Shown here one piece after another: positions 2,711 to 18,921 of a stretch of DNA of 42,367 bases (positions are counted from its first letter, which is position 1; each line of letters begins with the position of its first letter). The notes beneath the pieces are model-generated. The model saw only the letters and a program-made list of their open reading frames with translations. It had not been told where the DNA came from and ran no database searches. This DNA comes from Gaiellaceae bacterium (GTDB lineage: Bacteria > Actinomycetota > Thermoleophilia > Gaiellales > Gaiellaceae). The position numbers were made by a program, and so were the translations under genes. Where the stretch lies: the NCBI GenBank assembly GCA_035641605.1, contig DASQTZ010000044.1, forward strand, positions 1 through 42,367, written 5' to 3'.

Positions 2711-3592
2711 ATGGGAACGAGATTCGCCGCCGCGCTCGCTTTGGCGCTTGCAGCGCTCCCTTCAGCCTCGGCTGCCGACCGCGTCGTCACGATCGCGAGC
2801 ATCGGCTTCGTCCCGGCGGACGTGACCGTTGCGGCCGGCGATTCCGTGACATGGCGCAACAGCGACACGAAGCTCCACCAGGTGAACTTCGACAAGGCGC
2901 CGTGCAACCTGATGATCGCGGCGGGCGCGAGCGGGTCCTGCACGTTCCGCGCGGGCGGGAAGTTCAACTACCGCGACGCGAGCATGCCGGGAGGCAGCTT
3001 CCGCGGCTCGGTGACGGTCACCGGGCCGAAGACCTCGGTGACGCTCGCCGCCTCGCGCCGGGTTGCCCCTTTCTCCGCGCCGGTGACGCTCGCAGGGGTC
3101 ATCTCGAGCCAGCAGACCGGCGAGTCGGTGGCCGTCTCCGCGCAGGAGTGCGGCAAAACTGCCTTCACGCAGTTGGGAAGCGCCACGACCACCGCCGGAG
3201 GCAATTGGACCTTCACCGTGAAGCCGGGACTCAACACGGTCTACCGCGCGCGCTGGCGGACGAACGACAGTGCAACGGTGACCGTGAAGGTGACCCCGAA
3301 GATCCGTCTTACGCGGCTCCGATCGCGCTTCACGGTGCGCATCAGCGCCACGCACGGATTCATTGGCAAGGCCGTGCTCTTCCAGCGCTACCGCGCCGCC
3401 GACCGACGTTGGCTGAGGCTCAAGCGCGTCACGCTCGGTGCCGTGAAGCCGCCCGTCGCGGGGACTGTCGTCACGTCGGCGAGCTTCCGCAGCCGTGTAC
3501 GCCTCGGGTGGCGGCTGCGCGTCGTGTTGCCGCAGCCGCAGGCGGGGACCTGCTACCTGTCCGTGGCGAGCAACACGCTCAGGATTCGCTAG
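2711..3592 (+). CDS. Secreted protein: N-terminal cupredoxin-like fold (copper ligands not conserved) plus Ig-like beta-rich region
   Basis: Signal peptide MGTRFAAALALALAALPSASA. The segment IGFVPADVTVAAGDSVTWRNSDTKLHQV resembles the start of a cupredoxin, but the C-terminal Cys-His-Met ligand loop is replaced (YRDASMPGG). Confidence 0.6.
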   Translation: MGTRFAAALALALAALPSASAADRVVTIASIGFVPADVTVAAGDSVTWRNSDTKLHQVNFDKAPCNLMIAAGASGSCTFRAGGKFNYRDASMPGGSFRGSVTVTGPKTSVTLAASRRVAPFSAPVTLAGVISSQQTGESVAVSAQECGKTAFTQLGSATTTAGGNWTFTVKPGLNTVYRARWRTNDSATVTVKVTPKIRLTRLRSRFTVRISATHGFIGKAVLFQRYRAADRRWLRLKRVTLGAVKPPVAGTVVTSASFRSRVRLGWRLRVVLPQPQAGTCYLSVASNTLRIR

Positions 3593-4328
3593 CCGCCTGC
3601 TCTCGGCGCCAGCGCTGAAACTCCCGCCAGAGCAGATCCGCGTTCGGGACCAGGAACGCAAAAGCGAGGCCGGGCAGCGCCGGCAGTCCGGCCACGTCCC
3701 ACGTCACCGCCAGCCACATCGTCGCGCCCAGCGACAGCGTCAGCGCGACCCACGTCCAGCCGACGCGGAGGTTCCAGCGCGCTGCCGCGGCGAGAAACAA
3801 CGCGAAGAAGAGCAGGTCGGGGAGGCCGAGGTTGGCCGAGGTCTCGCTGCCCGGCGAGGGAAACGCGAAGGAGAAGACGTCGAAGATCTGCGGCTGCTCC
3901 TCGACGATGTGCCGCGTCGGCCCCCGCCAGACGGAGAACGAGTCGACGATCGGTATGACGCACGCCACGAGCGCGACCCAGAGGACGCTCTCGAAGAAGC
4001 CGAGGAACCAGAAGGCGAACGTCGTCATCAGCGCGAGCTTCGAGAAATTCGCGAGCCCTTCGAGATCCGCGGCCTGAAGGGCTACGGTCAGGGCGAGAAG
4101 CACGACGGCGGCCAACCAGAGGCCGTTCACTCGGCGAAGAGGAAGCGCAAGCCAGACGAGCGCGAACACGGCCGGCATGAGACAGAGGCCGAGGAACGCG
4201 ATCTCCCACGACCTCGAGAGGTCGACGAGGCGATCCGTGTACGCGTAGTACGCGCCGAGAGCGACGGCGAGCGCCGCAAACGCCGCGACGCGTCGCGGCT
4301 CTAGTAGGGCGGAAGCTCGGCCCACCAC
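3579..4328 (-). CDS. Polytopic membrane protein, signal-peptide-peptidase/presenilin-like (A22-like) candidate
   Basis: Motifs IPIVDSFSVW, NLGLPDLLFF and LPALPG occur in consecutive TM segments with SPP-like spacing. The longest ORF reaches 4433 but would overlap the upstream UDG gene by 133 nt. GTG codons at 4328 and 4325 give a short overlap instead, so the start is uncertain. Confidence 0.6.
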   Translation of the reverse strand: MVGRASALLEPRRVAAFAALAVALGAYYAYTDRLVDLSRSWEIAFLGLCLMPAVFALVWLALPLRRVNGLWLAAVVLLALTVALQAADLEGLANFSKLALMTTFAFWFLGFFESVLWVALVACVIPIVDSFSVWRGPTRHIVEEQPQIFDVFSFAFPSPGSETSANLGLPDLLFFALFLAAAARWNLRVGWTWVALTLSLGATMWLAVTWDVAGLPALPGLAFAFLVPNADLLWREFQRWRREQAASES

Positions 4329-4891
4329 GGGCCGAGCGTCTTCAGCGCCTGCCAAAAGCGTGTCTTCGCTGCCTGCTCGTCGAGCGAGGCGTCGATGTCG
4401 GGGACGTAGAGAGCCTGCACCGTCGGGGTCCACTGCTGGAGCTCACCCGAGGTGGCTTCCAGCTCCGCGGCGAGGGGGAAATCGAGTCCATTGAGGAACG
4501 AGAGGGCCTCTTCGCCCATGACCACGACGAGCTTGGGTTGCACGATGTGCAGCTCGCGGGTCAGCCATGCGGCGGCCTGCTCCTCGTCGCCGCCGTCGAA
4601 CTTGAAGCAGTTCGTGCCGTAGACGGCCATGGGGTCGACGTGCAAGCGCTGAAGCGACTTGAGGATCGCCTGGCCGGCGCGCCCGAAGAAGGCGACTCCC
4701 TCCTGGATCTCCGAGTGCTGCGGCCGGAACTTGAGCAGCAGGATGTCCGCCAACGGATGACCCGACCCGAGGGCAGGCACGCGGCCCTCTTCGGACCGCG
4801 TGATCTCGTCACCGAGCTCGTTGATCTCGGTGATCGCCTTCTGGAGGTAGCGCTCTTGGATTTCGTCGGTCGGCACTGGCAACGGCGGCAT
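4301..4891 (-). CDS. Uracil-DNA glycosylase superfamily protein (divergent family-4-like)
   Basis: GSGHPLADILLL...EGVAFFGRAGQAILKSL resembles UDG family 4 motif A and the PF(V)G-AG region. I did not recognise the C-terminal HPS motif. Confidence 0.65.
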   Translation of the reverse strand: MPPLPVPTDEIQERYLQKAITEINELGDEITRSEEGRVPALGSGHPLADILLLKFRPQHSEIQEGVAFFGRAGQAILKSLQRLHVDPMAVYGTNCFKFDGGDEEQAAAWLTRELHIVQPKLVVVMGEEALSFLNGLDFPLAAELEATSGELQQWTPTVQALYVPDIDASLDEQAAKTRFWQALKTLGPWWAELPPY

Positions 4892-4906: not shown

Positions 4907-6640
4907 CTAGCGCACTCTTTCCTTGACCTGCGCCGACCATTTCAGAGCCTGGAGGTAGGCGAGCGAGCGTGGGCGGCGTAGTACCTCCGCGCTCCGGAGA
5001 CTGACGAGAAACTCTTCGGGGTCGTGGAACGCGCGCATGCGCACACCACCGGTGCCGAGCCCTTGGAGCACATGCGCGTCGGACCCCGCGCCCATCGTCA
5101 GGTTGTACTTGCGGGCAAAGCGCTCCGCCTCGTCGTTGTATTGCTCGAAGAGCAACCGTGCGTTGTAGACCTCGAAGACGTCAATGTCGGCCAGGTGCCT
5201 GTGCAACGTCGCCGCGTCGGGAATCGCGTGCATCCGGTCGAACGGATGGGGGAGATAGACGAGTCCGCCCTGCTCGCGGATCGCCGTGATCGTGTCTTCG
5301 AACGAGAGACCCCGTGGAATCTCCTCATCGAGGAAGAGCCCGATCACCTCGCCCTGGCCGGCCGTCTTGATCTCCTCGCCCGGGATGACCGTCAGCTTGC
5401 GGTCGCGTCCGAGCTCGACGGCCTCGAGCGCGCCGCCGAAAGCGTTGTGGTCGGTGACCGCGATCGCTCCCAGCCCTTGTCGTTCGGCCTGGTCGAGCAG
5501 CTCGGCCGGCTCGACGAGACAGTCGTGGGACCACGAGGTGTGCGAGTGGAGGTCACAGAGGATCCACGGCCGATCCGACAGCGGGTCGGCTGATCTGGAC
5601 TTCGCGCGCCGCCGCTCCGCCAGCCGCCGGTAGAGCTCGTCCAGCTCCTCGCCGAGCTCGGCGAAGCTTTGACCTTCCGCGTGCCGCCGTGACTCCGCCT
5701 GTGCGGTGGCTCGGAGCTCGTCGTTCTCGGCGAGGCGGGCCAGGGCGGCCGCCGCGAGGGCCGGCTGCTCCCGCACGCCGGGAGGCGAGGCGACTGCCGC
5801 GCCCGCGGCCTGTGCCTCGAGCTCCAGGCGAGGGAGACCGGCGAGTCCGGGCACGAAGATCGCCGCCTCGTTGAGCAGCGGAGCGCGGAGCGCGCCCGAG
5901 AGCGCGGTACGAACGTGGGCTCGTTTCCTGAGCGACGGCGTGATCGAAGGCCGCCCCGACAGCGGCTTCGTACGGAGAAGGATGAGCTCCCAGTCGGGCA
6001 ACTCTTTGAGAACTGAAAGGACGGCTCTGGTCAGCGGCCGCTCGCCGGTCCGCCACTCACAGACGACGAGCCGGCGTTTCGCCGCCGGGCTGAAGAGTTC
6101 CGTGTCGACTCCGAGCGGTACCGATCGGTACTCGCCCGGGAACCGCATCTCGGCCGCCTCCGCCGCAAGCGCGGACGTTGCCAGCAGCGCATCGATCCGC
6201 CCGAGTAGGCGCCTGCGCTGAGCGCGGCCCGGCGGATACCCGAGGCGGTCCGGCGAGAGGAAGGTCGCCACCGCGAGCGAGCGGGCATCCCGCAACGCGA
6301 GATAGGACAGGCTCGGCAAGCCCGGCTCGAACCCGTGGACGACGTCGTATTCGCCCCGAGCGAGCGCGAGCGCGAGGTTCGCCCGGACGCCGACAGGCAG
6401 ACCGATCCTGCTTCGGCGCGAGATGGGGACGGCCGGCCCCAGCGCGATGACCTCACGTCTGGCGCCATCCTGAAGAGCACGCCGCCCGGCGAGCAGGTCG
6501 GCGGCACGATTCGACGGGGCGAGCACGCTGACCTCGTGTCCGAGGTTGCGAAGCGCCCCAGCCGCGCCCGCGACGTGCTCGTTGACGTCATGAGGCTGCG
6601 ACCAGGAGAACGGCGTGACGAGGCAGATACGGAGCGTCAC
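4907..6640 (-). CDS. Fusion protein: GT4 glycosyltransferase (PimA-like) N-terminal part plus C-terminal PHP-domain metal-dependent phosphoesterase
   Basis: N-terminus LRICLVTPFSW...GHEVSVLAP...FEPGLPSLSYLAL is GT4/PimA-like. The C-terminal 220 aa carry the PHP motifs CDLHSHTSWSHD, VTDHN, PGEEI, LPHPF and GSDAH. It is a single uninterrupted 577-aa ORF with a GTG start. Confidence 0.85.
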   Translation of the reverse strand: MTLRICLVTPFSWSQPHDVNEHVAGAAGALRNLGHEVSVLAPSNRAADLLAGRRALQDGARREVIALGPAVPISRRSRIGLPVGVRANLALALARGEYDVVHGFEPGLPSLSYLALRDARSLAVATFLSPDRLGYPPGRAQRRRLLGRIDALLATSALAAEAAEMRFPGEYRSVPLGVDTELFSPAAKRRLVVCEWRTGERPLTRAVLSVLKELPDWELILLRTKPLSGRPSITPSLRKRAHVRTALSGALRAPLLNEAAIFVPGLAGLPRLELEAQAAGAAVASPPGVREQPALAAAALARLAENDELRATAQAESRRHAEGQSFAELGEELDELYRRLAERRRAKSRSADPLSDRPWILCDLHSHTSWSHDCLVEPAELLDQAERQGLGAIAVTDHNAFGGALEAVELGRDRKLTVIPGEEIKTAGQGEVIGLFLDEEIPRGLSFEDTITAIREQGGLVYLPHPFDRMHAIPDAATLHRHLADIDVFEVYNARLLFEQYNDEAERFARKYNLTMGAGSDAHVLQGLGTGGVRMRAFHDPEEFLVSLRSAEVLRRPRSLAYLQALKWSAQVKERVR

Positions 6641-6694: not shown

Positions 6695-6723
6695 GGGAGG
6701 GCCGGCGCCGCACCGGCCCTCCC
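6695..6723 (-). terminator. GC-rich stem-loop between ino1 and the GT4-PHP gene (possible U-tract-less terminator/attenuator)
   Basis: Perfect 11-bp stem GGGAGGGCCGG / CCGGCCCTCCC with a 7-nt loop, beginning 10 nt after the ino1 stop. There is no U tract on the minus-strand transcript. Confidence 0.4.
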
Positions 6724-6732
6724 TTTATCTCT

Positions 6733-8196
6733 TCAGGCCTTCGCCTTGGCGCGCGAGGGCTTGCGCGCGTACTGCTTGATGAAGCGCTCGACGGCATCCC
6801 GCGCCTCGGCGTCGGGGATCTGCTTCGGCGGCGACTTCATCAGGTAGGCGCTCGGCGCCTCCAGCGCCCCGGAGATCCCGTTGTTCAGCGCCAGCTTCGC
6901 CAGCCTCACGGCGTCGATCACGATGCCGGCCGAATTCGGCGAGTCCCATACCTCGAGCTTCAACTCGAGATTGAGGGGCACGTTCCCGAAGGTCGTCCCT
7001 TCCATGCGGATGTACGCCCACTTCCGGTCCGTGAGCCACGGGACGTAGTCGGACGGCCCCACGTGGACGTTCTCCACGCCCAGGTCGTAGTCGAGCACCG
7101 ACGTGACCGCGTTCGTCTTCGAGATCTTCTTGGACTCGAGCCGATCCCGCTCGAGCATGTTCAGGAAATCCGAGTTGCCGCCGACGTTGAGCTGCATCGT
7201 CCGGTCGAGTCGCACGCCCCGGTCGCGGAAGATCTGCGTCAAGGCGCGGTGTGTGATCGTCGCGCCGACCTGGGACTTGATGTCGTCGCCGATGATCGGC
7301 AGGCCGCGCTCCTCGAACTGCTTCTGGAAGTAGCCGCCCTTGGCGATGAAGACCGGCATGCAATTCACCATCGCGCAGCCGGCGTTCAGGATCTGCTCGG
7401 CGTACCACTTGGTCGCTTCCTCCGAGCCCACAGGAAGGAAGCTGACGACGACGTCGGTGCCGGTCTCCTGGAGGATGCGAACGACGTCGTCGGTGTCGCC
7501 GGGGGCCTTCTCGACGACCTCGGCGAGGTACTTGCCGATCCCGTCGTGCGTCATCCCGCGCGAGACCTTGACGCCGGTCTTCGGAACGTCGGCGAACTTG
7601 TAGGTGTCGTTGGGCCGCGCCCAGATCGCGTCCGAGAGGTCCTTGCCGACCTTGTCGGCGGTGACGTCGAACCCCGCGGTGAACTCGATGTCGCGGACGT
7701 GATAGCCCCCAAGATTCACGTGCATGAGACCGGGGACGAACTCGTCCTCCGGTGCGTCCTTGTAGTACTCGACGCCCTGCACGAGCGAGTTCGCGCAGTT
7801 CCCGACGCCGATGATCGCGACGCGGACGCTGTCTTCGCTGCGGGCTGAGCTTCCGTTTCTGGATGGCATGCGTTCCTTTCTCCTGCTTGGGACGGCGGCC
7901 CCGAGCCGCTCGCCCAGGATCTCGACGATCAAGTCGTTGGTGCTACGGCCGCGCTCGGCAGCCCTGGTCTCGAGCTTCTCCTTGAGCGCCGCCGGCATGC
8001 GCAGCAAGACATCGCCTTTGCCCTTCGGCGCGGCGCCCTTGCGGCCGCTGGGCTCGAAGGGCACGGCGAAACGCGACGCCAGGATCCCGACGGCGACGTC
8101 GTTGAGACTGCTGCCGGCGCGCGTGACTTCGGCGGCCAGTCGCTGTTTTAGTTCGCCCGGAACCCGGACGAGGACGTCTCTTCTGCTAGCACTCAA
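6733..8196 (-). CDS. ino1: myo-inositol-1-phosphate synthase with an in-frame N-terminal tandem ribbon-helix-helix (Arc/MetJ-like) extension; internal ATG at 7869 with its own RBS
   Basis: The MIPS core ([22 protein letters not shown] onward) starts at ATG 7869, preceded by AGGAGAAAGGAA. The 109 codons upstream are in frame, contain no stop and have coding-like GC3. They encode two Arc-like repeats, [36 protein letters not shown] and [36 protein letters not shown]. The outermost start is TTG 8196. Confidence 0.8.
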
Positions 8197-8213: not shown

Positions 8214-8846
8214 TCAGTACTGCTTCAGCTGTCGCCGGACGTGGTTGACGCGCTGGAAGACGGTCAGCCACGCCGTGACGTTGAGCAGGTAGACGGCCCA
8301 GGGCAAGAGCCCCCAGGGCGCCAGAAACAGTCCGCTGACGATCACGATCACCCGTTCCGCCCGACTGCCGATGCCGACATCACCCTTCAGGGTCAGAGCC
8401 TCAGCGCGGGCGCGTGTATAGCTGACTAGGAACGACCCGGCCAGTGCGGCGAAGGTGGCACCGAGCGCAATCTCGTTTCCGTCGCGCGTGAAGACCAGGC
8501 CGATGGCGCTGAGCATGACCGCCTCTCCGAGCCGATCCGTCGTCGAGTCGAGGAAGGCGCCGAACGGCGTCCCCTTGCCGCTCTGCCGGGCGAGCGCTCC
8601 GTCGAGGATGTCCAGCAGCGATCCGGCCCAGAAGAGCGTCGCCCCGGTCCAGAACCACAGCAGCTCGTTCCGGTCCTCAAAGTAGACGGCGACTGCGCCG
8701 GCGGCGCAGAGCGATAGCCCCAATGCGGTGAGCGCATCGGGCGTGATCCGGGTGCGTGCGAGGCCGACGATGGAGCGGGCGGCGACTCGCCGGACGCCCG
8801 TGGTGTAGCCCGCCTTGACTCGGGCCGCGCCGCCCTCGCGACCCAC
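8214..8846 (-). CDS. CDP-alcohol phosphatidyltransferase, phosphatidylinositol-phosphate synthase-like
   Basis: CDP-alcohol motif DILDGALARQSGKGTPFGAFLDSTTDRLGE (D-x2-DG-x2-AR...G-x3-D-x3-D) in a polytopic protein. The gene sits between a PAP2 gene and ino1. Confidence 0.85.
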   Translation of the reverse strand: MGREGGAARVKAGYTTGVRRVAARSIVGLARTRITPDALTALGLSLCAAGAVAVYFEDRNELLWFWTGATLFWAGSLLDILDGALARQSGKGTPFGAFLDSTTDRLGEAVMLSAIGLVFTRDGNEIALGATFAALAGSFLVSYTRARAEALTLKGDVGIGSRAERVIVIVSGLFLAPWGLLPWAVYLLNVTAWLTVFQRVNHVRRQLKQY

Positions 8847-9593
8847 TTACGTGGTGCGGACGAGCGCCCGCTTCACCGTCCGGCCGTGAATCACTGCGGC
8901 CGCGACGAGCACCACGGCGATGCCGGCGGCGATGTCGAGCCAGAAGTGGTTGGCGGTTGCCATAACGGCGAACCACACCCACGCCGGCCAGATCAGCCAG
9001 AGCGCTTTCAGCCAGCTGCGGCGGACGAGGATCGCCAGCGTGACGCCGACGATCAGTGCATCGGCGGCGTGAAGGCTCGGCATCGCCGCGTACGGGTTGG
9101 AGGCCAGCTCGACCAGGGTCGAGCCATGGTTTGCGGTCCCGACGGCCGCGAGCGTGTCCACGAAGCCGAGCTCGGGGAAGTAGCGCGGCGGCGCGGTCGG
9201 GAGTAGCACGTACCCGACCAGCCCGATCACGTTCGCGAGCATCAGCAGGTTGCGGAAGCGGATGAAGTGGCTGTAGTGGCGGAAGTAGACCCAGAGCAGC
9301 GCCAGTCCGACGACGGCGAACTGCGACAGCCAGTAGGTCCACGACGTCAGGAGGCCGAGCAGGTGAAACGACTCGGTCCAGCTCTGGAGCGAGAGCTCCC
9401 AGAGTCCCGTCGCGCGCCGCTCGAAGTCGATCACGCCGCGCGCGTTCTCGAAGGCAACCGACGGGCTCCGGTCGGCGATCCCGCGCACGACCTGATAGGC
9501 GAGCACGAACCCGAACCAGATCAGGATCTGGCGGAAGAGGTCGAACCAGCCGCGCGGTAGGACGCGGCGTTCGGCGGCGGCGACCGAAGTCAT
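8847..9593 (-). CDS. PAP2-superfamily membrane protein (PAP2_3 / Aur1-Ipt1 inositolphosphotransferase-like)
   Basis: Motifs NPYAAMPSLHAADAL and ATANHFWLDIAAG in a multi-TM protein. Its stop directly abuts the GTG start of the PIP synthase gene. Confidence 0.75.
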   Translation of the reverse strand: MTSVAAAERRVLPRGWFDLFRQILIWFGFVLAYQVVRGIADRSPSVAFENARGVIDFERRATGLWELSLQSWTESFHLLGLLTSWTYWLSQFAVVGLALLWVYFRHYSHFIRFRNLLMLANVIGLVGYVLLPTAPPRYFPELGFVDTLAAVGTANHGSTLVELASNPYAAMPSLHAADALIVGVTLAILVRRSWLKALWLIWPAWVWFAVMATANHFWLDIAAGIAVVLVAAAVIHGRTVKRALVRTT

Positions 9594-12654: not shown

Positions 12655-13568
12655 GCGAGCGGTTGCTGTTCATCGGCGTCTCGACCTCGGGGTCGAGCAT
12701 CTTCGAGCTCTTCCCCCGCTGGGCCGAGATCCTGGAGATCGAAGCACGAGTCGAGGGCTACGACATCGCCCTCGGCGCGCCGCCTGAAGCCTTCCGCGCC
12801 GCTGTCGAGCACATCGCCGGCGACCCTGCCGCACGCGGCGCCCTGGTCACGACGCACAAGGTCGACGTCTACCGCCACGCAAGCGGGCTCTTCGACGACT
12901 TGGACACGAACGCCCGCTTATGCCGTGAGGTCTCCTGCATCTCCAAGCGCGCCGGTTCGCTCGTCGGGCACGCGAAGGATCCGATCACCGCAGGCCGGGC
13001 GCTCGGTGAGTTCATGGCGCCGGGCCACTGGGCGAGCGGAGCGCACGGGCTCTGTCTCGGCGCCGGTGGCGCCGGGACGGCGATCGCGGTGCACCTCGCC
13101 GGCGGCGGGGAGCCGCCAGAGCGACTCGTCGTCACCGATACCGACGCCGGCCGGCTCGACACCCTTCGTACGGTCGTCGGCGAGCTCAGGTCGCGCGCCG
13201 ACGTCCGCCTAGAGCACGTCCGCTCCTCGGACGAGACCGACGCGCTGCTCGGGCAGCTTCCGCCCCGCTCTCTCGTCGTGAACGCCACCGGTCTTGGGAA
13301 GGACGCTCCGGGCTCGCCGATCTCGGACGACGCAACATTTCCGGAGCGTGGTGTGATCTGGGAGCTCAACTACCGCGGCGAGCTTCGCTTCCTGCGGCGG
13401 GCGTTGCACCAGCAGGAGGCGCGCCGCCTTGAGATCCACGACGGCTGGCGGTACTTCCTCCACGGCTGGAGCGAGGTCATCGCCGAGGTGTTCCACCTCG
13501 AACTCACGCCCGAGCGGTTCGAACTTCTCGCGGCAGCCGCCGAGCCGCAGCGGCCGGTTCCCGCTTGA
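12651..13568 (+). CDS. Shikimate/quinate dehydrogenase-family protein (divergent)
   Basis: AroE-like architecture: LVTTHKVDV (cf. NVTxPxK) and Rossmann motif GLCLGAGGAGTAIAVHL. The ATGA overlaps the upstream remnant. Confidence 0.65.
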   Translation: MSERLLFIGVSTSGSSIFELFPRWAEILEIEARVEGYDIALGAPPEAFRAAVEHIAGDPAARGALVTTHKVDVYRHASGLFDDLDTNARLCREVSCISKRAGSLVGHAKDPITAGRALGEFMAPGHWASGAHGLCLGAGGAGTAIAVHLAGGGEPPERLVVTDTDAGRLDTLRTVVGELRSRADVRLEHVRSSDETDALLGQLPPRSLVVNATGLGKDAPGSPISDDATFPERGVIWELNYRGELRFLRRALHQQEARRLEIHDGWRYFLHGWSEVIAEVFHLELTPERFELLAAAAEPQRPVPA

Positions 13569-13594
13569 CAGGAGCGCGCGACCTCTCATACGGT
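13565..13594 (+). promoter_or_regulatory. Candidate sigma-70-type promoter for the GntR-headed operon
   Basis: TTGACA (13565-13570), an 18-nt spacer, then TACGGT (13589-13594, which fits TANNNT). It lies in the only 43-bp gap upstream of a long run of overlapping genes. Confidence 0.45.
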
Positions 13595-13611
13595 CGTCCT
13601 GTACGGACAGG

Positions 13612-14433
13612 ATGCCCGACGCGAGCAACATCGTTCTGCCCGCCGTAGCGATCGATCGCCGGTCGCCGATCCCGTTCTACTTCCAGCTCACCGAGCTGCT
13701 GACGAGGGAGATCGAGACCGGGCGGTGGGCTGTGGGCGAGCGGCTTCCCTCGGAGCCTGCGATCTGCGAGCAGTTCGGTGTCTCACGGACCACGGTCCGG
13801 CAGGCTCTTATGGCGCTCGAGTCGGAAGGCCTCATCCGACGGGAGAAAGGCCGCGGCACGTTCGTGGCGGAGCAGGAGTCCGGCGGCTGGTTGCTCCAGT
13901 CCTCGCACGGCTTCTACGAGGAAGCGGAGCGGGCCGGGCATGCAGTCCAGTCGCGCGTGCTGGGCCGTAAGGTCGAGGCGCTCCCGGTCTGGGCATCCGA
14001 GTCGCTTCGCCTGCAGCCGGGAAGCGAAGGCGTGACCGTCGAGCGCCTTCGGTGGATCGACGAGCACCTCGTCATGTACGTGATCAGCCACTTCCCGGCG
14101 ACGGTCGCCGAGGCGCTGCTCCACGCCGATCTCGAAACAGGTTCGCTCTACCGGGTCCTGGAGGATCACCAGGGCTTGGTCGTCGCAGGCGGGCGCCGCG
14201 TGGTCGCGGCGACGAGAGCGGACCATAAGCTGGCCGAGCTGCTCGAGGTCGACCCCGGCTCGCCGCTTCTCTGTGTCGAGGCGGTGTCGTGGGACAACGG
14301 CTTGCAGCCGTTCGAGTGCTACCGAGCCTGGCACCGCGCCGACCGGACCAAGATCGAGGTGCGTGTTGTGCATCAGGAGACGGCCGCGAAGGTCGGCCTC
14401 GGTCTCGACGAGTTGCGGACGATCGGCGGGTAA
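13612..14433 (+). CDS. GntR-family (HutC/UTRA subfamily) transcriptional regulator
   Basis: wHTH segment PIPFYFQLTELLTREIETGRW..LPSEPAICEQFGVSRTTVRQALMALESEGLIRREKGRGTFV followed by a UTRA-like C-terminal domain. The start is ATG 13612, not the upstream ORF extension. Confidence 0.9.
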   Translation: MPDASNIVLPAVAIDRRSPIPFYFQLTELLTREIETGRWAVGERLPSEPAICEQFGVSRTTVRQALMALESEGLIRREKGRGTFVAEQESGGWLLQSSHGFYEEAERAGHAVQSRVLGRKVEALPVWASESLRLQPGSEGVTVERLRWIDEHLVMYVISHFPATVAEALLHADLETGSLYRVLEDHQGLVVAGGRRVVAATRADHKLAELLEVDPGSPLLCVEAVSWDNGLQPFECYRAWHRADRTKIEVRVVHQETAAKVGLGLDELRTIGG

Positions 14434-15170
14434 TGCGCTCGGCGATCGTCACCGGCGCAACGAGCGGAATAGGCCGAGCAGCAACGATGGCGCTCGCCGG
14501 CGCCGGGTGGTGGGTCCTTGCCTCGGGGCGCGACGGGGTCCGCGGTGAGGAGGTCGGACGGCAGCTGGGCGACGCAGGCGACTTCGTGGCCGGCGATCTC
14601 ACGGAGGCTGGCATGCCGGAGAGGCTGGTGGAGCGGACGGGCCCGAGGGCGCCGCTCGGCCTGCTCGTGAACTGCGCCGGGGCGCACTTCCTCGCGACGC
14701 TTCCGAACACTCGCCCGGAGCAGTGGGACGATTTGATGGCGCTCAACCTTCGCGCGGCTGCCCTGATGGCGCGGGCGGCTATCCCCCCGATGCAAGCCGC
14801 GGGCGGCGGCGTGGTGATCAATGTCTCGAGCGAAGCGGGGATCGCAGCCGTGCCCGGCCAGGTCGCTTACAACGTGTCCAAGGCCGCGCTCCTGATGCTC
14901 ACTCAGTCGATCGCCGTCGACCATGCGAACGACGGGATCCGCGCGGTCTCGATCTGTCCGGGCACAACGAGGACGGCGCTCGTCGAAGACGCGATCGCAT
15001 CGGCTCCGGACCCGCGGGCCCACGAGCAGTGGCTCGCCTCGGCGCGGCCCGCAAAGCGCCTGGGCAAACCGGAGGAGATCGCAGCGGCGATCGTCTTCGC
15101 GGCGAGCGACGAGGTCTCGTACATGACCGGCTCGCATCTCGTGATCGACGGCGGCTACACGGCGATGTAG
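14433..15170 (+). CDS. SDR-family oxidoreductase
   Basis: TGATSGIGRA cofactor motif, NCAG, and S...YNVSK catalytic residues. TAATG overlap with gntR. Confidence 0.9.
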   Translation: MRSAIVTGATSGIGRAATMALAGAGWWVLASGRDGVRGEEVGRQLGDAGDFVAGDLTEAGMPERLVERTGPRAPLGLLVNCAGAHFLATLPNTRPEQWDDLMALNLRAAALMARAAIPPMQAAGGGVVINVSSEAGIAAVPGQVAYNVSKAALLMLTQSIAVDHANDGIRAVSICPGTTRTALVEDAIASAPDPRAHEQWLASARPAKRLGKPEEIAAAIVFAASDEVSYMTGSHLVIDGGYTAM

Positions 15171-15217
15171 TCATGGCAGAGGCAACGACGACGGCGGAGA
15201 CGCCGAGGAGGTGGAGG

Positions 15218-16396
15218 ATGAAGCGACGGAGGATCGGGCTCGTGCTCGCCGCGTTGCTCGTCGGGCTGCTGGCCGCATCGTGCGGCGGCGACGACGATGG
15301 TGGTGGGGCGGCCGAGCAGGAGATTACGATCGGCTGGACGCCGCCGGACATCACCGGCGTGTTCAAGACCGCAACGAATTTCTTCGAAAGGGCCGCGAAG
15401 GACGCGAACGCGGCCGGCTTCAACGTCAAGGTCGAGAGCCGCTCGCCGGCTACACACACGGCCTTCGCCGACCAGTTGGCGATCATCGAGGACTACATCT
15501 CCCGCGGAGTCGACGTGATCGCGATCTCCCCGGCAGACACCGAGGCGGTCAAGCCCGCGATTCGTAACGCGAACGAGGCGGGCATCCCCGTGATCATGGT
15601 CAACCTCCTCGAGCCGCAGGAAGACATCGAGGTCGCGAGCTACATCGGCTTCGACAACTCCGAGGCGGCATCGGTCTCGGCCTACAGCGTCCTCGACTAC
15701 TACGGTGGTCCGGGCGTTCTCGGCAGCGGCCCGAAGCTCGAGGCCGGGGCCGACCAGTTCCTCGATCTCGAGTGGTGGGAGAAGACGTACGCCGACGCCG
15801 ACAAGGCGACGCCGAAAGCGAACGGCGTAGTTATCGAAGGCATCGCGGGGACGTTCTTCTCACAGGAGCGCCTCGACGGCTTCAACGAGGTGATCACCAA
15901 CTACCCGGGGATCAAGATCCTGGGCAAGCCGATCGCGGCTGACTGGAACCGCGAGAAGGGGATCAAGGCGGCCGAGACCTTCTACTCCCGGTTCAACCCG
16001 TCCCAGCTGGATTTCGTCTGGGCAGCGTCGAACGAGATGGGACTGGGCGCGATGATCACGGCCGAGCGGAAGGGGATCCTCGATTCGACGGGCGGGAAAA
16101 CACCCGCGCCAGACAGCAAGGTGTCGATCTTCACCAACGACGTCACACCCGAGTCGACCGACCGCATCCGGCAGGGCAAGCTGATCGCGGAGACGCACCA
16201 CGGGTTCCCGGAGTGGGGCTGGTTCGGCACGGAGTACGCCGTCCGGCTCGCCTGCGGCCTCGACGTTCCGAAGACGAAGGACATCCGGCCCCGGACCGTC
16301 TGGCAGGGGAACGCCGAGCAGTTCTATCCGACTCCAAAGCTCCCGGAAATCGACTGGGAAGGCATCAAGTCTGACTGCAAGGGCGACGAGGATTAG
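15218..16396 (+). CDS. Sugar ABC transporter substrate-binding protein (PBP type I, ribose/polyol-like), probably a lipoprotein
   Basis: GGAGGTGGAGG RBS and MKRRRIGLVLAALLVGLLAASCGG signal/lipobox-like sequence. An alternative ATG lies at 15173. Confidence 0.85.
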   Translation: MKRRRIGLVLAALLVGLLAASCGGDDDGGGAAEQEITIGWTPPDITGVFKTATNFFERAAKDANAAGFNVKVESRSPATHTAFADQLAIIEDYISRGVDVIAISPADTEAVKPAIRNANEAGIPVIMVNLLEPQEDIEVASYIGFDNSEAASVSAYSVLDYYGGPGVLGSGPKLEAGADQFLDLEWWEKTYADADKATPKANGVVIEGIAGTFFSQERLDGFNEVITNYPGIKILGKPIAADWNREKGIKAAETFYSRFNPSQLDFVWAASNEMGLGAMITAERKGILDSTGGKTPAPDSKVSIFTNDVTPESTDRIRQGKLIAETHHGFPEWGWFGTEYAVRLACGLDVPKTKDIRPRTVWQGNAEQFYPTPKLPEIDWEGIKSDCKGDED

Positions 16397-16406
16397 CGAT
16401 CCACTA

Positions 16407-17885
16407 CTGCGCCTTGAAGGCGTCAGCAAGGCGTATCCGGGCGCGCAGGCCCTCGCCGGCGTCGACTTCGAAGTCAACGCCGGCGAGGTCCACGCCCTGC
16501 TCGGGGAGAACGGCGCGGGCAAGTCCACGCTGATGAAGGTGATCGCAGGCTCGGTGACCCCGGACACGGGGCAGATGACCGTCGGCGGTGTGGAAGTTCC
16601 GTTCGGCTCGCCCGAGGAGGCGCGTTCGCGGGGGATCGGGATCGTCTATCAGGAGCTGAGCCTGGTGCCGCAGCTCTCGATCGCCGAGAACGTCTTCCTC
16701 GGGCGCTGGCACGGTCCCCGCGGGCTCGTCGACTGGTCGGCGGTGAACGAGGCCGCCCGCGAGCCACTCCGGCGGATCGGGTTCGACGTCGATCCACGGC
16801 GCCACGTGCGCGACCTGGGCATGGCCGAGCGCCAGCTGGTCGAGATCGCGAAGGCGCTTTCCTCCGAGATTCGGATCCTCCTCCTCGACGAGCCGACGTC
16901 AGCGCTCTCGGACCGTGAGGCGCACCGGCTGTTCGAGATCATTCGCGACCTCACGCGCTCCGGTGTCGCCGTCGTCTACGTCTCCCACCGGCTGCCCGAA
17001 GTCCTCGGGATCGCCCGTCGCGTCACTGTCCTCCGTGACGGGGAGAAGATCGAGACGGTCTCGGCCGCGGAGGTGGACGAAGGAAAGCTGGCGCGAACGA
17101 TGGTCGGTCACGCGTTGGCGAGCGAGCTCGAACAGGCGGCCACGCCGGCCGAGACGGAAGAGCGACCGGTAATCCTGCGGACAGAAGGGCTCGCCCGCCC
17201 GCCGCGGTTGAAACCGGTTGACCTCGAGCTGCGACCCGGAGAGATCGTCGGCGTGTTCGGCCTCGTCGGGGCCGGACGGACAAGGCTCGCAAGGACGCTG
17301 TTCGGACTGGAGCCGGCAACGGAGGGGACGCTGGAGATCGACGGCCGCGAGCGCACGATCCGCTCGCCGGCGACGGCAATCGCCGCGGGGCTCGGGTATC
17401 TCGGCGAGGACCGCGCGATGGGGGTCGTCCCACGCCTTCCGGTCGCCGCCAACATCACCCTGGCCTCGTTGGGCCGCGTCTCCGTGGGCCCGGTGCTCAA
17501 CTTCGGCCGTGAGAACGGCGTCGCCGCGCGCTACGCGAAGGAGCTGGGGATCCGCACGACCATCGACCGCCTCGCCGGCACCCTGTCGGGCGGGAATCAG
17601 CAGAAGGCCGTCCTCGCCCGATGGCTGTGCTCCAACGCCAGAGTCTTGATTCTCGACGACCCGACACGCGGAATCGACGTGGGCGCCAAGGACGAGGTCT
17701 TCCGCCTCGTTCGGCGGCTCGCGGAGGAGGGAGTCGCCGTGCTCTACCTGACGTCGGAGATTCGCGAGGCTCGCTCTCTCGCCGGCCGAGTCCTCGTCAT
17801 GGCGGACGGCCGGATCGCTGCGTCGTTCGCTCCCGACGCGACGGAGGAGGAGATCATGACCGCAGCGGGAGGCGTCGTTGTCTGA
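16407..17885 (+). CDS. Sugar ABC transporter ATP-binding protein (two fused NBDs, RbsA-like)
   Basis: Both NBDs are recognisable. The first Walker A, GENGAGKST (16503-16529), lies upstream of the first canonical start (ATG 16533), so the real start must be non-canonical (CTG 16407 or ATT 16392). The start is uncertain. Confidence 0.8.
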   Translation: MRLEGVSKAYPGAQALAGVDFEVNAGEVHALLGENGAGKSTLMKVIAGSVTPDTGQMTVGGVEVPFGSPEEARSRGIGIVYQELSLVPQLSIAENVFLGRWHGPRGLVDWSAVNEAAREPLRRIGFDVDPRRHVRDLGMAERQLVEIAKALSSEIRILLLDEPTSALSDREAHRLFEIIRDLTRSGVAVVYVSHRLPEVLGIARRVTVLRDGEKIETVSAAEVDEGKLARTMVGHALASELEQAATPAETEERPVILRTEGLARPPRLKPVDLELRPGEIVGVFGLVGAGRTRLARTLFGLEPATEGTLEIDGRERTIRSPATAIAAGLGYLGEDRAMGVVPRLPVAANITLASLGRVSVGPVLNFGRENGVAARYAKELGIRTTIDRLAGTLSGGNQQKAVLARWLCSNARVLILDDPTRGIDVGAKDEVFRLVRRLAEEGVAVLYLTSEIREARSLAGRVLVMADGRIAASFAPDATEEEIMTAAGGVVV

Positions 17886-18921
17886 GGCCGAGACGGTTCA
17901 ACCGGGGGGAGGCGGCCTCTCGCGGGCGCGGACGCTCGTCGCCCGCCTCTTGACGACGGCAGGAGGACGAGGGGGCGCACTCATCATCCTGCTCGCGCTG
18001 GTCGTCGCCTTCTCCCTCGCTGCGGACAACTTCCTCACGGTCGACAACCTCCGCAACATCTTGCGCCAGTACTCGGTGCCCGCGATTCTCGCGGTCGGGC
18101 AGACGGTCGTGATCGTCTCCGCCGGGATCGACCTCTCGGTCGCCTCGACGGCGGCGCTCTCGGGGTCGGTGATGGGCGTGATGTACGCGCACGAGGGGTA
18201 TCCCGAACCGGTCGCACTGCTGATGGGCCTTGCCGCTGGTTTCGCGGTCGGCGCGATCAACGGGTTCGTGATCACCAAGTGGCGCGTGCCGGACTTCATC
18301 GCCACGCTCGGGGCTTTCACTGCCGTCAGGGGAGTCGCGCTGCTCGTGACGGACGGGTTGCCCGTGCCCGACTATACGAAGGCGCAGGAGGGTCGAACGG
18401 TGCCGGAGACCGTCACGACGCTCGGAGCGGACTCGGTGTTCGGAATCCCGCTCATCGCCGTCGTCGCCGGTGCTTGTGCCCTGATCGGCTGGTTCATCCT
18501 TTCGCGGACGACGTTGGGCCGGTCCGCGTACGCGATCGGCGGGAACCGAGAGGCCGCGCGCGTCTCTGGGATCCGGGTCGAGCGCGTGAAGTGGTCGATC
18601 TACATCTTCTCCGGCTTGATGGCGGCGATCGCCGGCTTCATGCTCACCGGCCGGCAGGGGAGCGCGAACGCGCTGATGGGTGAGGGGATGGAGCTGCAGT
18701 CGATCGCGGCGGTCGTCGTCGGCGGAACCAACCTCTTCGGCGGCGAGGGGACGATCGGCGGGACGATCATCGGCGTCTTGATCATTGGAGTCCTGAACAA
18801 CGGCCTCAACATCCTGGGGGTCGCGGACTTCTGGCAGAGAGTGGTGAACGGTTCGATCATCGTCGCCGTCGTGGCGCTGGACCAGTGGCGACGGCGGGCA
18901 GCCGCGGCGAGGGAGGCATGA
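17878..18921 (+). CDS. Sugar ABC transporter permease (RbsC/AraH family)
   Basis: Polytopic protein with the typical motif RTTLGRSAYAIGGNREAARVSGI. It overlaps both neighbouring genes. Confidence 0.9.
   Translation: MSEAETVQPGGGGLSRARTLVARLLTTAGGRGGALIILLALVVAFSLAADNFLTVDNLRNILRQYSVPAILAVGQTVVIVSAGIDLSVASTAALSGSVMGVMYAHEGYPEPVALLMGLAAGFAVGAINGFVITKWRVPDFIATLGAFTAVRGVALLVTDGLPVPDYTKAQEGRTVPETVTTLGADSVFGIPLIAVVAGACALIGWFILSRTTLGRSAYAIGGNREAARVSGIRVERVKWSIYIFSGLMAAIAGFMLTGRQGSANALMGEGMELQSIAAVVVGGTNLFGGEGTIGGTIIGVLIIGVLNNGLNILGVADFWQRVVNGSIIVAVVALDQWRRRAAAAREA

Follow-up and report, generated by a model that had tools for sequence, protein, structure and literature searches.

Is a PHP-type phosphoesterase the enzyme that makes phosphatidylinositol (PI) from phosphatidylinositol phosphate (PIP) in the Thermoleophilia, and what is the role of the PimA-like glycosyltransferase (GT) to which it is fused? 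This question is raised by a gene of a soil actinobacterium of the Gaiellaceae, which lies in a stretch of 42,367 nucleotides that was analysed as a whole and is called the window here. Bacterial and archaeal synthesis of phosphatidylinositol proceeds through PIP, and as PI is essential in mycobacteria, the PIP phosphatase step is of interest as a drug target. In the literature of 2015, 2022 and 2026, the actinobacterial PIP phosphatase is still described as unidentified or 'long-sought' (PMC4634129; PMC9385802; bioRxiv 10.64898/2026.07.15.738315), in agreement with the first-pass annotation of the locus, which regarded the step as lacking a firm assignment. Among bacteria, genetic evidence for a PIP phosphatase exists only for BT_1525 of Bacteroides thetaiotaomicron, a protein of the PgpA family that belongs to an experimentally defined cluster together with a PAP2-type synthase (BT_1522), a PIP synthase (PIPS, BT_1523) and a synthase of myo-inositol-1-phosphate (MIPS, BT_1526). 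In mycobacteria, the alpha/beta-hydrolase EphE, for which a physical association with PimA is predicted, was proposed as the PIP phosphatase in 2026 (bioRxiv 10.64898/2026.07.15.738315). Literature searches for a PHP-PimA fusion, for a PHP-type PIP phosphatase, and for inositol lipid genes of the Thermoleophilia gave nothing relevant.

A widespread fusion gene

The gene is a single open reading frame, as had been claimed in the first-pass annotation, and its translation contains all motifs quoted there, which are LRICLVTPFSW, GHEVSVLAP and EPGLPSLSYLAL for the GT part, and DLHSHTSWSHD, VTDHN, GEE, HP and GSDAH for the PHP part. A domain search had been recommended for both parts, and with Pfam, Glyco_transf_4 is found at residues 20-181 (E 3e-14), PHP at residues 363-427 (E 2e-9; 38.4 bits, cut-off 26.4), and PHP_C at residues 501-552 (E 1e-11; 44.3 bits, cut-off 21.3), all three above the curated cut-offs. 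There are more than 100 full-length homologues that are 77-98% identical, relatives exist in the genomes of at least 593 GTDB species, and full-length fusions, found in hundreds of metagenome-assembled genomes from Gaiellaceae, Thermoleophilaceae and other Thermoleophilia, can be followed down to 38% identity. Because full-length homologues are so widespread, the fusion is no artefact of a frameshift or of sequencing, and the concern that a stop or frameshift might separate two genes is settled in favour of one gene. All homologues found bear Thermoleophilia or Actinomycetota names. No match was obtained when the window was scanned for Rfam families and tRNAs.

Table 1. Positions of the fusion gene, its modules and neighbouring features in the window
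Feature	Position	Strand	Basis and remarks
UDG-superfamily protein gene	4301..4891	minus	Pfam UDG E 6e-9; alignments
GT4 (PimA-like)-PHP fusion gene	4907..6640	minus	577 aa + stop, GTG start; ORF, Pfam, homologues
PHP metal-dependent phosphoesterase domain	4910..5566	minus	aa 359-577; Pfam PHP + PHP_C, Foldseek
GT-B C-terminal Rossmann half	5606..6085	minus	aa 186-345; AF2 model, Foldseek, residue tables
GT-B N-terminal Rossmann half, PimA-like	6086..6640	minus	aa 1-185; phmmer vs PDB, residue mapping
GC-rich hairpin, 11 bp	6695..6723	.	terminator-like scan; in ino1-fusion spacer
ino1 (myo-inositol-1-phosphate synthase)	6733..8196	minus	Pfam Inos-1-P_synth E 3e-36; NCBIfam mycothiol_INO1 545 bits
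CDP-alcohol phosphatidyltransferase, PIP-synthase type (by sequence)	8214..8846	minus	Pfam CDP-OH_P_transf
PAP2_3 membrane protein, Aur1/IPC-synthase-like	8847..9593	minus	Pfam PAP2_3 E 2e-40

A complete metal site in the PHP domain

In the preferred reading, the fusion is a cytoplasmic protein of two modules, the conserved catalytic part of which is the C-terminal PHP phosphoesterase. This domain has the full set of PHP metal motifs (HxH, D, (D)H, E, H, DxH) in the form of H365-x-H367, D373, D397-H398, E422-E423, H465, E490/N493 and D521-x-H523, and these motifs align with those of RNase AM (7ug9), TM0559, 3e0f, 3e38 and 2yb1. H365, H367, D373, H398, E423, H465, D521 and H523 are invariant in fusions that are 34-48% identical to the window protein. 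The best Foldseek matches of the PHP part are TM0559 with a TM score of 0.67-0.69, as expected for a PHP barrel, and RNase AM with an rmsd of 3.3 A and 28% identity. The domain ends with a basic helix (residues 560-576) that is not prominent in a hydrophobic-moment scan.

For the named PHP subfamilies (RNase AM, pAp phosphatase, CehA/McbA, histidinol phosphatase), every NCBIfam score is below the cut-off, the best being the CehA/McbA domain with 70.5 bits (cut-off 80). The architecture of PHP followed by PHP_C is common to the fusion and the TrpH/YciV-type proteins (RNase AM 7ug9, Cv1693 2yb1, 3e0f, TM0559 2anu), but these are at most about 28% identical to it, and unlike the fusion none of them is joined to a GT or linked to inositol genes. 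That such nearest characterised relatives act on nucleotides or RNA counts against PIP as the substrate. Among them are 3',5'-bisphosphonucleotide phosphatases (NCBIfam; 2yb1, 3e0f), which cleave a ring phosphomonoester beside a second phosphate, and this chemistry may be seen as resembling that on PIP. No PgpA family is among the Pfam and NCBIfam matches of the fusion, and should the fusion act as PIP phosphatase, it would be one without homology to BT_1525.

Two competing gene associations

On the minus strand, the genes are arranged in the order PAP2_3, CDP-alcohol phosphatidyltransferase, ino1, fusion and UDG-like gene. The position of the fusion directly downstream of ino1 and the PIP synthase is as initially described, with the qualification of a spacer of 92 nt and its hairpin in between, and a co-transcription of ino1 and the fusion would be putative in the window. 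The ino1 product has an N-terminal extension of about 120 residues with ribbon-helix-helix motifs (HicB/FitA/Arc RHH matches, residues 57-98). For the CDP-alcohol transferase, the best PDB matches are PgsA1 of M. tuberculosis (MtPgsA1, E 5e-25) and RsPIPS, the top NCBIfam matches are AIP/PIP synthases (below cut-off), and it has conserved the RAER (RxxR) and FQR arginines that are diagnostic of PIP synthases (PMC4634129). By these arginines, the neighbour is of the genuine PIP-synthase type, so that the cell would be expected to make PIP and to need a phosphatase for it. The sole PDB matches of the PAP2_3 protein are Aur1 proteins, with PSLH and HxxxD aligned, and its NCBIfam match to phosphoinositol dihydroceramide synthase (E 3e-12) is far below the cut-off; judging from these matches, it is probably a phosphoinositol transferase that requires PI as donor.

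This neighbourhood is conserved. Among divergent relatives (below 50% identity and with 5 kb or more of sequence upstream; 21 loci for the upstream counts), ino1 is found upstream on the same strand in 19, the CDP-alcohol transferase in 18, and PAP2_3 in 13 loci, and in close relatives the respective numbers are 60, 59 and 57 of 61. The ino1/PIP-synthase neighbourhood persists in relatives that are 35-40% identical, and the scan of genome contigs covers the 80 closest loci. The fusion thus clusters with PIP synthase and MIPS, as expected for a PIP phosphatase, and the surveyed divergent loci give the opposite of a regular occurrence in genomes without these genes, which had been named at the outset as an argument against such a function. 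Against the PIP phosphatase reading, ino1 and the fusion lie 1-5 kb apart in many close relatives, with unrelated protease genes on the opposite strand in the gap, and in the window they have the hairpin between them. A TRAM methyltransferase gene and dnaK-grpE-dnaJ are also syntenic, and as these genes are unrelated, inherited gene order may account for part of the conserved neighbourhood, nor do the loci count as independent cases.

The linkage to the downstream UDG-like gene, which starts 15 nt after the fusion, is even tighter than that to ino1 and counts against the PIP phosphatase reading: this gene follows directly in 47 of 49 divergent and 100 of 100 close loci (147 of 149 informative loci), and it does so also at loci without ino1 (L081, L110). 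DNA ends are the substrate of the PHP domains of PolX and DnaE, and also here the PHP domain could be a phosphoesterase for nucleotides or nucleic acids and cooperate with the UDG-like partner, for example in 3'-end cleaning or AP-site processing during base excision repair, in which case the inositol genes would be nearby as a matter of inherited order only, like the methyltransferase and dnaK operon genes. The RNase AM and pAp phosphatase relationship of the domain agrees with such a role, as does a translational coupling of the UDG-like gene with a gap of 2 nt at the Gaiellales locus L172. However, a fusion with a lipid glycosyltransferase derived from PimA makes no sense in DNA repair, the UDG-like protein has no family-4 catalytic motif (GE(A/G)PG) and the copy in the window also no Fe-S cysteines, as seen in alignments, and there are loci at which the inositol genes and a PHP gene are organized together. 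In some Gaiellales (two long contigs, L171 and L172), a PHP protein of 225 residues that has no GT is encoded in a tight PAP2_3-PIPS-MIPS-PHP operon with overlaps of 4 nt and a gap of 3 nt between MIPS and PHP, and the PAP2_3/PIPS/MIPS overlaps followed by the PHP gene suggest a single operon. A function in DNA repair is thus unlikely. The idea of the first-pass annotation, in which the missing PIP phosphatase may be this PHP domain, gains considerable comparative support from the PIP-synthase neighbour, the conserved neighbourhood and the operons without GT, and has to be weighed against the competing association with the UDG-like gene.

A GT-B module that has lost most of the PimA active site

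The fusion protein was modelled with AlphaFold on the basis of an alignment of 53 sequences, distant fusions among them (mean pLDDT 92.2, pTM 0.87); a model with a pLDDT of 65.9, from a shallow alignment of 20 sequences with 77% identity or more, was discarded. Despite the lack of a Pfam match to Glycos_transf_1 across residues ~190-345, this region forms a full second Rossmann half in the model, and the two-halved GT-B fold of the GT4/PimA type is thus complete. The C-terminal half had been suspected to be divergent, and indeed it is the least conserved part of the protein, but still completely folded. PimA (2gej/4n9w, GDP-mannose:phosphatidylinositol alpha-1,2-mannosyltransferase) is the best match among solved proteins by sequence and structure: it is the sole GT match of the window protein in a phmmer search of the PDB (residues 3-187, E 1e-12), and the best PDB match of the model in Foldseek (TM 0.70, ~385 columns, 25% identity). 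In a relative with intact GT (P0175), PimA reaches 108 bits, in comparison to 45 bits for MshA and 25 bits for PimB', and the closest solved relative is thus PimA and not another GT4 enzyme. As the GT is specifically PimA-like, it ties the protein to PI lipids and not to soluble inositol derivatives. A PIP synthase is nearby in both cases, in mycobacteria in the form of the pgsA1-pimA operon.

The residues that are required in PimA are mostly replaced, whereby their roles are taken from studies on PimA and other GT4 enzymes (PMC9883506, PMC4506291, PMC9202250), and mutations of these residues abolish the activity of GT4 enzymes (PMC9883506, PMC9202250). The glycines G15/G16 of the Gly-rich loop, which bind the beta-phosphate of the donor, correspond to H17-D18 in the window protein and, in the two main clades, to H-D/E in all of the 80 members that were sampled. 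H118 is L128 in the window protein and F or L in 40 of 40 members of its clade, and still H in other clades. The pyrophosphate ligand K202 is P, L or A (P or L in the window clade). E274 is A267 in the window protein, with a deletion of the three residues 275-277 of the mannose loop, and P or A across the window clade, D253 is G, and for R196 the equivalent is W196 or R197, as the alignment is ambiguous by one position. The window clade retains the ribose-binding E282 of the EX7E motif in the form of E275, and 39 of 40 members of the Thermoleophilaceae type have R at this place. R201, for which a contact to the inositol or phosphate of PI has been proposed in PimA, is kept in the window protein and 100% conserved. 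The critical PimA residues are depleted, with an identity of 0.11-0.12 in comparison to 0.27 overall. Also the amphipathic 77-RKVKK-81 helix of PimA is not conserved, and when amphipathic helices for membrane binding were sought by hydrophobic moment, none was singled out, the top segments being ordinary GT helices.

Family-wide, the identity is 0.53 for the PHP domain, 0.30 for the N-terminal and 0.23 for the C-terminal GT half, and the donor-binding half is thus least conserved, which is the opposite of what is usual in GT4 enzymes. Fusions that are 34-48% identical to the window protein have just one invariant residue in the GT part. Purifying selection nevertheless acts on all three lobes, with dN/dS values of 0.09 (GT-N), 0.15 (GT-C) and 0.085 (PHP). 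The PimA-derived module has lost most residues for sugar-nucleotide binding and catalysis of the transfer and is most likely non-catalytic, and a mannose transfer from GDP-Man to PI by this module is poorly supported by the residues that are present.

An active module would make the protein bifunctional: the PHP domain would dephosphorylate PIP, and the attached PimA-type GT would glycosylate the resulting PI to a PIM1-like glycolipid. The complete fold with PimA as closest relative, the selection on the module and the persistence of R201 and, in the window clade, E282 agree with this, and so does the existence of basal clades that are near-canonical, such as P0152 with G16, H118 and E282 kept and K202 replaced by R. 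In two relatives, genes for GT-C mannosyltransferase-like proteins (GT87/PIG-M-like, PMT_2) are found between ino1 and the fusion, and Solirubrobacter, which also belongs to the Thermoleophilia, contains PI and PIM (PMC10722151). However, the replacements in the window clade, the arginine in place of E282 in the Thermoleophilaceae clade and the reversed conservation of the donor-binding half stand against it, and a large Gaiellales clade keeps the operon without any GT, which makes a bifunctional enzyme quite improbable. The channelling of PI into an active PimA, as proposed at first, is hence not upheld, and the fallback offered with it, a GT part that serves as scaffold, fits better to the residue losses and the lineages without GT.

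About equally improbable is a soluble substrate, in which case the PHP domain would be an inositol-1-phosphate phosphatase that generates free inositol, or it would act on a glycosyl-inositol-phosphate made by the GT. The gene follows directly after ino1, with only 3 nt in between in the standalone operons, and the second-best GT family is MshA, a GT4 enzyme that uses inositol-1-phosphate. GT4-phosphatase fusions on phosphorylated acceptors are also known, such as sucrose-phosphate synthase (Foldseek lists 6kih), and like in the case of this enzyme, of OtsA/OtsB, GpgS/GpgP and MshA/'MshA2', the fusion combines a GT with a phosphatase for a phosphorylated pathway intermediate; those systems have an active GT and a HAD-type or other phosphatase, in contrast to the PHP domain and apparently inactive GT of the fusion. 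But the GT is far nearer to PimA than to MshA by the scores given above and has no donor-binding residues, the window protein itself has no match to MshA, and relatives score with 62-72 bits far below the cut-off of 462 of the MshA family TIGR03449; an MshA-like, soluble pathway was down-weighted for this score gap. In addition, the GT is dispensable, as seen in the standalone PHP operons, and the co-conserved PIP synthase directly consumes inositol-1-phosphate, with which a soluble phosphatase from the same operon would compete.

A putative route to PI in the Thermoleophilia

The reading that is preferred here is that the PHP domain would be the PIP-to-PI phosphatase of this lineage, with a PimA-derived module that is non-catalytic, to which a probability of roughly 0.5 can be given on the basis of the sequence comparisons. 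The ino1 product would supply inositol-1-phosphate, which the neighbouring PIP synthase would join with CDP-diacylglycerol to PIP. The PHP domain would then remove the phosphate of the inositol ring, and the PI so formed could serve as membrane lipid and as phosphoinositol donor for the Aur1-like PAP2_3 transferase. The PimA-descended module would contribute docking, substrate presentation or regulation, and would not be the next enzyme. PIP as substrate, the way in which the pathway runs and what the GT module does are all inferred.

Lipid phosphate phosphatases also belong to the PAP2 superfamily, such as PgpB, which dephosphorylates phosphatidylglycerophosphate, and it could be argued that the PAP2_3 protein, whose gene abuts that of the PIP synthase in the window (gap of 0 nt) and shares 4 nt with it in L171 and L172, is the true, PgpB-like PIP phosphatase and the PHP fusion a phosphodiesterase or head-group remodelling enzyme of inositol-lipid metabolism. 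This is very improbable, as PAP2_3 is not found in 8 of 21 divergent loci in which PIPS, MIPS and fusion persist, its sole PDB and NCBIfam matches are phosphoinositol transferases (Aur1, BT_1522-type synthase) and no phosphatases, and the homologous PAP2-type protein in Bacteroides is a PI-consuming synthase next to which a separate phosphatase is needed; the protein was down-weighted as phosphatase for the transferase-type matches and its absence from divergent loci.

With the PHP domain as PIP phosphatase, the four functions of the Bacteroides cluster match one for one with those of the locus, and the PHP domain occupies the place of the PgpA-type phosphatase; the proposed reaction is the same, as inferred from sequence for the fusion, but the PgpA fold is unrelated to the PHP barrel. 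The same step is at stake with EphE, the fold of which is also unrelated to PHP, and its association with PimA would have a covalent counterpart in the fusion. A wider scenario, which is somewhat less probable than the function itself, is that a PHP with PHP_C domain is the PIP-to-PI phosphatase of all Thermoleophilia, that it was first captured by fusion to PimA, that the PimA part then decayed to a pseudo-glycosyltransferase under selection, which perhaps presents PIP or PI or docks on the PIP synthase or the membrane, that this module was later lost in some Gaiellales, and that the invariably linked UDG-fold protein, which has no catalytic motifs, may be a further component that is unrelated to DNA.

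The locus in any case offers a PIP phosphatase candidate that is cheaply testable and belongs to another enzyme superfamily than PgpA, and natural controls are at hand in the form of fused, near-canonical and GT-less versions. If the reading is true, unrelated phosphatases have filled the PIP-to-PI step independently, the gene would be a marker from which the synthesis of inositol lipids could be predicted in uncultured Actinomycetota that abound in soil, and a glycosyltransferase that turned into a pseudoenzyme would be documented; the mycobacterial case would still not be solved by a PHP of the Thermoleophilia alone.

Standalone and partial forms

Standalone PHP proteins of 217-229 residues form more than 100 clusters at 90% identity, and those clusters that carry a taxon name belong to Gaiellales or Actinomycetota. 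Two further loci were rejected as standalone cases: the gene at L124 is cut by the contig end, and L108 has a truncated PHP without the HxH motif after unrelated sequence, probably due to an assembly break. Proteins of 372-389 residues that combine half a GT with a PHP domain (P0528, P0523, P0184) may be real, but no weight was put on them, as the locus L173 has several fragmented genes.

Domain architecture and distribution of the fusion

The first-pass annotation had taken the PHP domain of the fusion for a candidate PIP phosphatase, attached to a PimA-type glycosyltransferase (GT) for channelling, and the gene behind this proposal is genuine. Its codon-position GC has the pattern of a real gene (GC3 0.83), all motifs cited are found in the translation, Glyco_transf_4, PHP and PHP_C exceed the curated Pfam thresholds, and the fusion occurs as one protein in more than 100 full-length homologues with 77-98% identity to the window protein, the named ones being from Gaiellaceae or Gaiellales, and in others down to 38% identity, including a large Thermoleophilaceae clade. 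Relatives are present in at least 593 GTDB species genomes, and public annotations call the protein 'glycosyltransferase', 'PHP domain-containing protein' or 'CehA/McbA family metallohydrolase'. Glycos_transf_1 was absent from residues ~190-345 in the Pfam scan. AlphaFold performed poorly on a shallow alignment; the model used here is based on a second alignment of 53 sequences with distant fusions (mean pLDDT 92.2, pTM 0.87) and predicts a complete GT-B fold joined by a helical linker to a PHP barrel with a long basic terminal helix. In Foldseek searches, PimA is the top PDB match to the fusion (TM 0.70 normalised to PimA, 25% identity, ~385 columns), and the top matches of the C-terminal domain are TM0559 and RNase AM.

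Features of the fusion and its neighbourhood in the window
Feature	Position	Strand	Remark
MoaA	9635-10741	minus	
PAP2_3 membrane protein	8847-9593	minus	
CDP-alcohol phosphatidyltransferase, PIP-synthase type	8214-8846	minus	
ino1 with N-terminal ribbon-helix-helix extension	6733-8196	minus	
11-bp hairpin, almost all GC	6695-6723		in the 92-nt ino1-fusion spacer
Fusion gene	4907-6640	minus	single 577-aa ORF, GTG start
Glyco_transf_4	fusion aa 20-181		Pfam, above curated threshold
PHP	fusion aa 363-427		Pfam, above curated threshold
PHP_C	fusion aa 501-552		Pfam, above curated threshold
UDG-superfamily protein	4301-4891	minus	downstream, 15 nt from fusion
Polytopic membrane protein	3579-4433	minus	start uncertain; overlaps UDG-like gene as listed

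Among fusions that are 34-48% identical to the window protein, nearly all invariant columns lie in the PHP domain, including D363, H365, H367, D373, H398, E423, H465, D468, D521 and H523, and the invariant PHP residues align to the metal-binding motifs in PHP enzymes of known structure. The fusion has the defining features of PHP phosphoesterases, and it belongs to no named NCBIfam subfamily.

Association with inositol-lipid genes

The CDP-alcohol transferase of the window is, judged by its sequence, of the PIP-synthase type: among solved structures it is closest to M. tuberculosis PgsA1 (E 5e-25) and the PIP synthase of Renibacterium, and the RxxR (RAER) and FQR arginines are retained. The cell would then make PIP and require a PIP phosphatase. 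Conservation of this neighbourhood was followed in the 80 closest GTDB loci, 80 metagenome loci found with a distant member as seed, ten that surround seven distant representatives and three for short forms. Counting loci with at least 5 kb upstream, close relatives have ino1 upstream on the same strand in 60/61, the CDP-alcohol transferase in 59/61 and PAP2_3 in 57/61 cases. It had been considered as an objection that homologues might regularly occur without ino1 and PIP synthase, and the opposite was found, as among relatives less than 50% identical to the window protein, counted in the same way, ino1 is upstream on the same strand in 19 of 21 loci and the CDP-alcohol transferase in 18 of 21 (PAP2_3 in 13/21). 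The counts call for caution on two points: all taxon-named members of the fusion/PHP group are from Thermoleophilia or Actinomycetota and unrelated genes (TRAM methyltransferase, the dnaK-grpE-dnaJ operon) are likewise syntenic, so that the neighbourhood signal is partly inherited gene order, and in many close relatives ino1 and the fusion are 1-5 kb apart (see below).

The most informative result is the existence of standalone PHP orthologues in inositol-lipid operons. With a 226-aa PHP protein as query, more than 100 clusters of such proteins with 217-229 aa were found, those with a taxon name being from Gaiellales or Actinomycetota. On two long contigs (L171, L172) the order is PAP2_3, PIP synthase, MIPS, PHP, UDG-like, with 4-nt overlaps among the first three and a 3-nt gap before PHP. 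As these operons lack a GT, the GT module is dispensable, and the partner that stays constant beside the inositol-lipid genes is PHP. By function, the four genes PAP2_3-PIP synthase-MIPS-PHP correspond one for one to a genetically defined Bacteroides cluster with the PAP2-type synthase BT_1522, the PIP synthase BT_1523, the PIP phosphatase BT_1525 and the MIPS BT_1526, PHP taking the slot of the PgpA-type phosphatase. BT_1525, without which B. thetaiotaomicron accumulates PIP, is the only assigned bacterial PIP phosphatase, and the fusion is not homologous to it.

It is the best-supported reading, with a probability of about one half, that in this lineage PIP is converted to PI by the PHP domain, and that the PimA-derived module is a non-catalytic appendage, which might have a docking, substrate-presenting or regulatory role. 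By analogy, such a chemistry is plausible, because among the characterised PHP enzymes nearest to it are 3',5'-bisphosphonucleotide phosphatases, which take off a ring phosphomonoester beside a second phosphate. The enzyme of this step is still described as unidentified (PMC4634129, PMC9385802), and our literature searches found no paper describing either such a fusion or a PIP phosphatase of the PHP type. A 2026 preprint (bioRxiv 10.64898/2026.07.15.738315) puts forward a different, unproven candidate, EphE, whose predicted PimA binding parallels the covalent PimA-like attachment in the fusion. The fusion makes this long-standing question directly testable, at least in Thermoleophilia.

Several loci show variations. 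Proteins of 372-389 aa (P0523, P0525, P0528, P0184; L173:8001-9119) contain only the C-terminal GT half and PHP; they may be intermediates in GT loss or frameshift artefacts, and several genes are fragmented in L173. In many close relatives the gap between ino1 and the fusion is 1-5 kb and contains opposite-strand secreted-protease genes. Several of them have large ones inserted there (subtilase S8, fungalysin M36, M6/PKD; L001:5954-9817, L007:6576-9836, L009:4423-9165), and the junction seems to be an insertion hotspot. In two loci, GT-C-type glycosyltransferase genes lie there on the same strand (L077:7387-8634 (+), L075:8486-9961 (+)), which are GT87/PIG-M-like (PimE-type family) and PMT_2, a hint at the synthesis of glycosylated PI lipids in some Gaiellales.

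The UDG-like partner

The association with the UDG-like gene is the main point that a PIP phosphatase does not explain. In 147 of the 149 loci that are informative, this gene comes directly 3' of the PHP-encoding gene, fused or standalone (loci with at least 800 bp downstream; 47/49 for relatives below 50% identity, 100/100 for close ones), a linkage tighter than that of ino1 and kept where ino1 is absent (L081, L110). Its product is related to family 4, with the GE(A/G)PG motif changed to L-K-F/Y-x-x (K54 invariant) and HPS replaced by P-D-I-D; the Fe-S cysteines are lost in the window copy and retained in relatives. The PHP domain could be a nucleotide or DNA-end phosphoesterase partnering this protein, and the inositol genes would then owe their place beside it to inherited gene order. 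Set beside the inositol-lipid operons with standalone PHP, this explanation is unlikely.

State of the glycosyltransferase module

An active bifunctional phosphatase-PimA is improbable. Like PimA, the module has a GT-B fold, but several catalytic features that define PimA are replaced. For this comparison, the PimA sequence was rebuilt from printed alignments and residues with documented roles (PMC9883506, PMC4506291, PMC9202250) were mapped onto the fusions; the equivalent of R196 could be placed only to within one alignment position.

PimA residues and their equivalents in the two main clades of fusions
PimA	Window clade	Thermoleophilaceae clade
G15-G16	H-D	H-E/D
H118	F/L	H retained
R201	retained	retained
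K202	P/L/A	A/G/S
D253	G	D in 27/40
E274	P/A/D, loop 275-277 deleted	A/S
E282	retained	R in 39/40

In the window clade, critical PimA residues are 11-12% identical, as opposed to 27% identity overall. R201 is conserved without exception in the members sampled from both clades; in docking studies this residue lies against the inositol O3 or the phosphate of PI. P106 is the sole invariant GT residue among the fusions of 34-48% identity, and across the family pairwise identity falls from 0.53 in PHP to 0.30 in the N-half of the GT and 0.23 in its C-half; ordinary GT4 enzymes have a nucleotide-binding C-half that is conserved better than the N-half (PMC9883506). With dN/dS values of 0.09 (GT-N) and 0.15 (GT-C) in 53 close pairs, next to 0.085 for PHP, the GT module is nevertheless maintained and not decaying. 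Certain basal clades are nearer to canonical PimA: P0152 retains G16, H118 and E282, and P0175 aligns with PimA across the whole domain (108 bits, 45 for MshA). The ancestor of the module was plausibly an active PimA. The fusion is thus a relative of PimA by fold and ancestry, but as several catalytic features are missing, it should not be filed as PimA.

At L081:7240-9626 (-), where ino1 is missing, as it is in few loci, a canonical full GT4 gene and an LPG_synthase_TM (flippase-like) membrane protein are paired divergently with the fusion.

Other possible substrates and phosphatases

It is improbable that the PHP domain acts instead on a soluble inositol phosphate or glycosyl-inositol phosphate; such a substrate would fit the ino1 linkage, and the adjoining PIP-synthase-type gene points to the lipid. 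That PAP2_3 is the true PIP phosphatase is very unlikely, since its sole solved relatives are Aur1 inositol-phosphorylceramide synthases (E 0.02; PSLH and HxxxD catalytic motifs aligned) and its sole NCBIfam match is the Bacteroides phosphoinositol-dihydroceramide synthase, so that it looks like a PI-consuming phosphoinositol transferase.

A second PHP/PHP_C paralogue of 229 aa (L089:17327-18016 (-)) lies 5 kb from the fusion and adjoins a YjbQ gene, so that not all members of the PHP_C subfamily stand in an inositol context.

Further features of the window

The hairpin between ino1 and the fusion is followed by a T-rich tail on the plus strand and by none on the coding (minus) strand; it could serve as terminator or attenuator, or stabilise the mRNA. 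The first ~120 codons of ino1 (about 7837-8196) encode two ribbon-helix-helix-like repeats, with Pfam HicB/FitA/Arc matches at aa 57-98, and this joining of a DNA-binding-type module to inositol-phosphate synthase suggests autoregulation. By tblastn, the extension is present in many close Gaiellaceae loci (matches from residue 2-5) and was not found in distant clades (matches begin near residue 100-120). The polytopic membrane protein, whose position behind the UDG-like gene is conserved in Gaiellaceae and the P0175-like clade, carries D-S-F, L-G-L-P-D and P-A-L motifs and matches no Pfam family significantly; weak Presenilin matches (E 0.03, below threshold) were obtained both for this protein and for an independent homologue, and it may be a presenilin/SPP-like intramembrane protease. 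What looks like an ordinary sugar-uptake locus lies at 13429-18921 (+), where genes for a periplasmic sugar-binding protein, an ABC ATPase and a permease come after that of a GntR/UTRA regulator.
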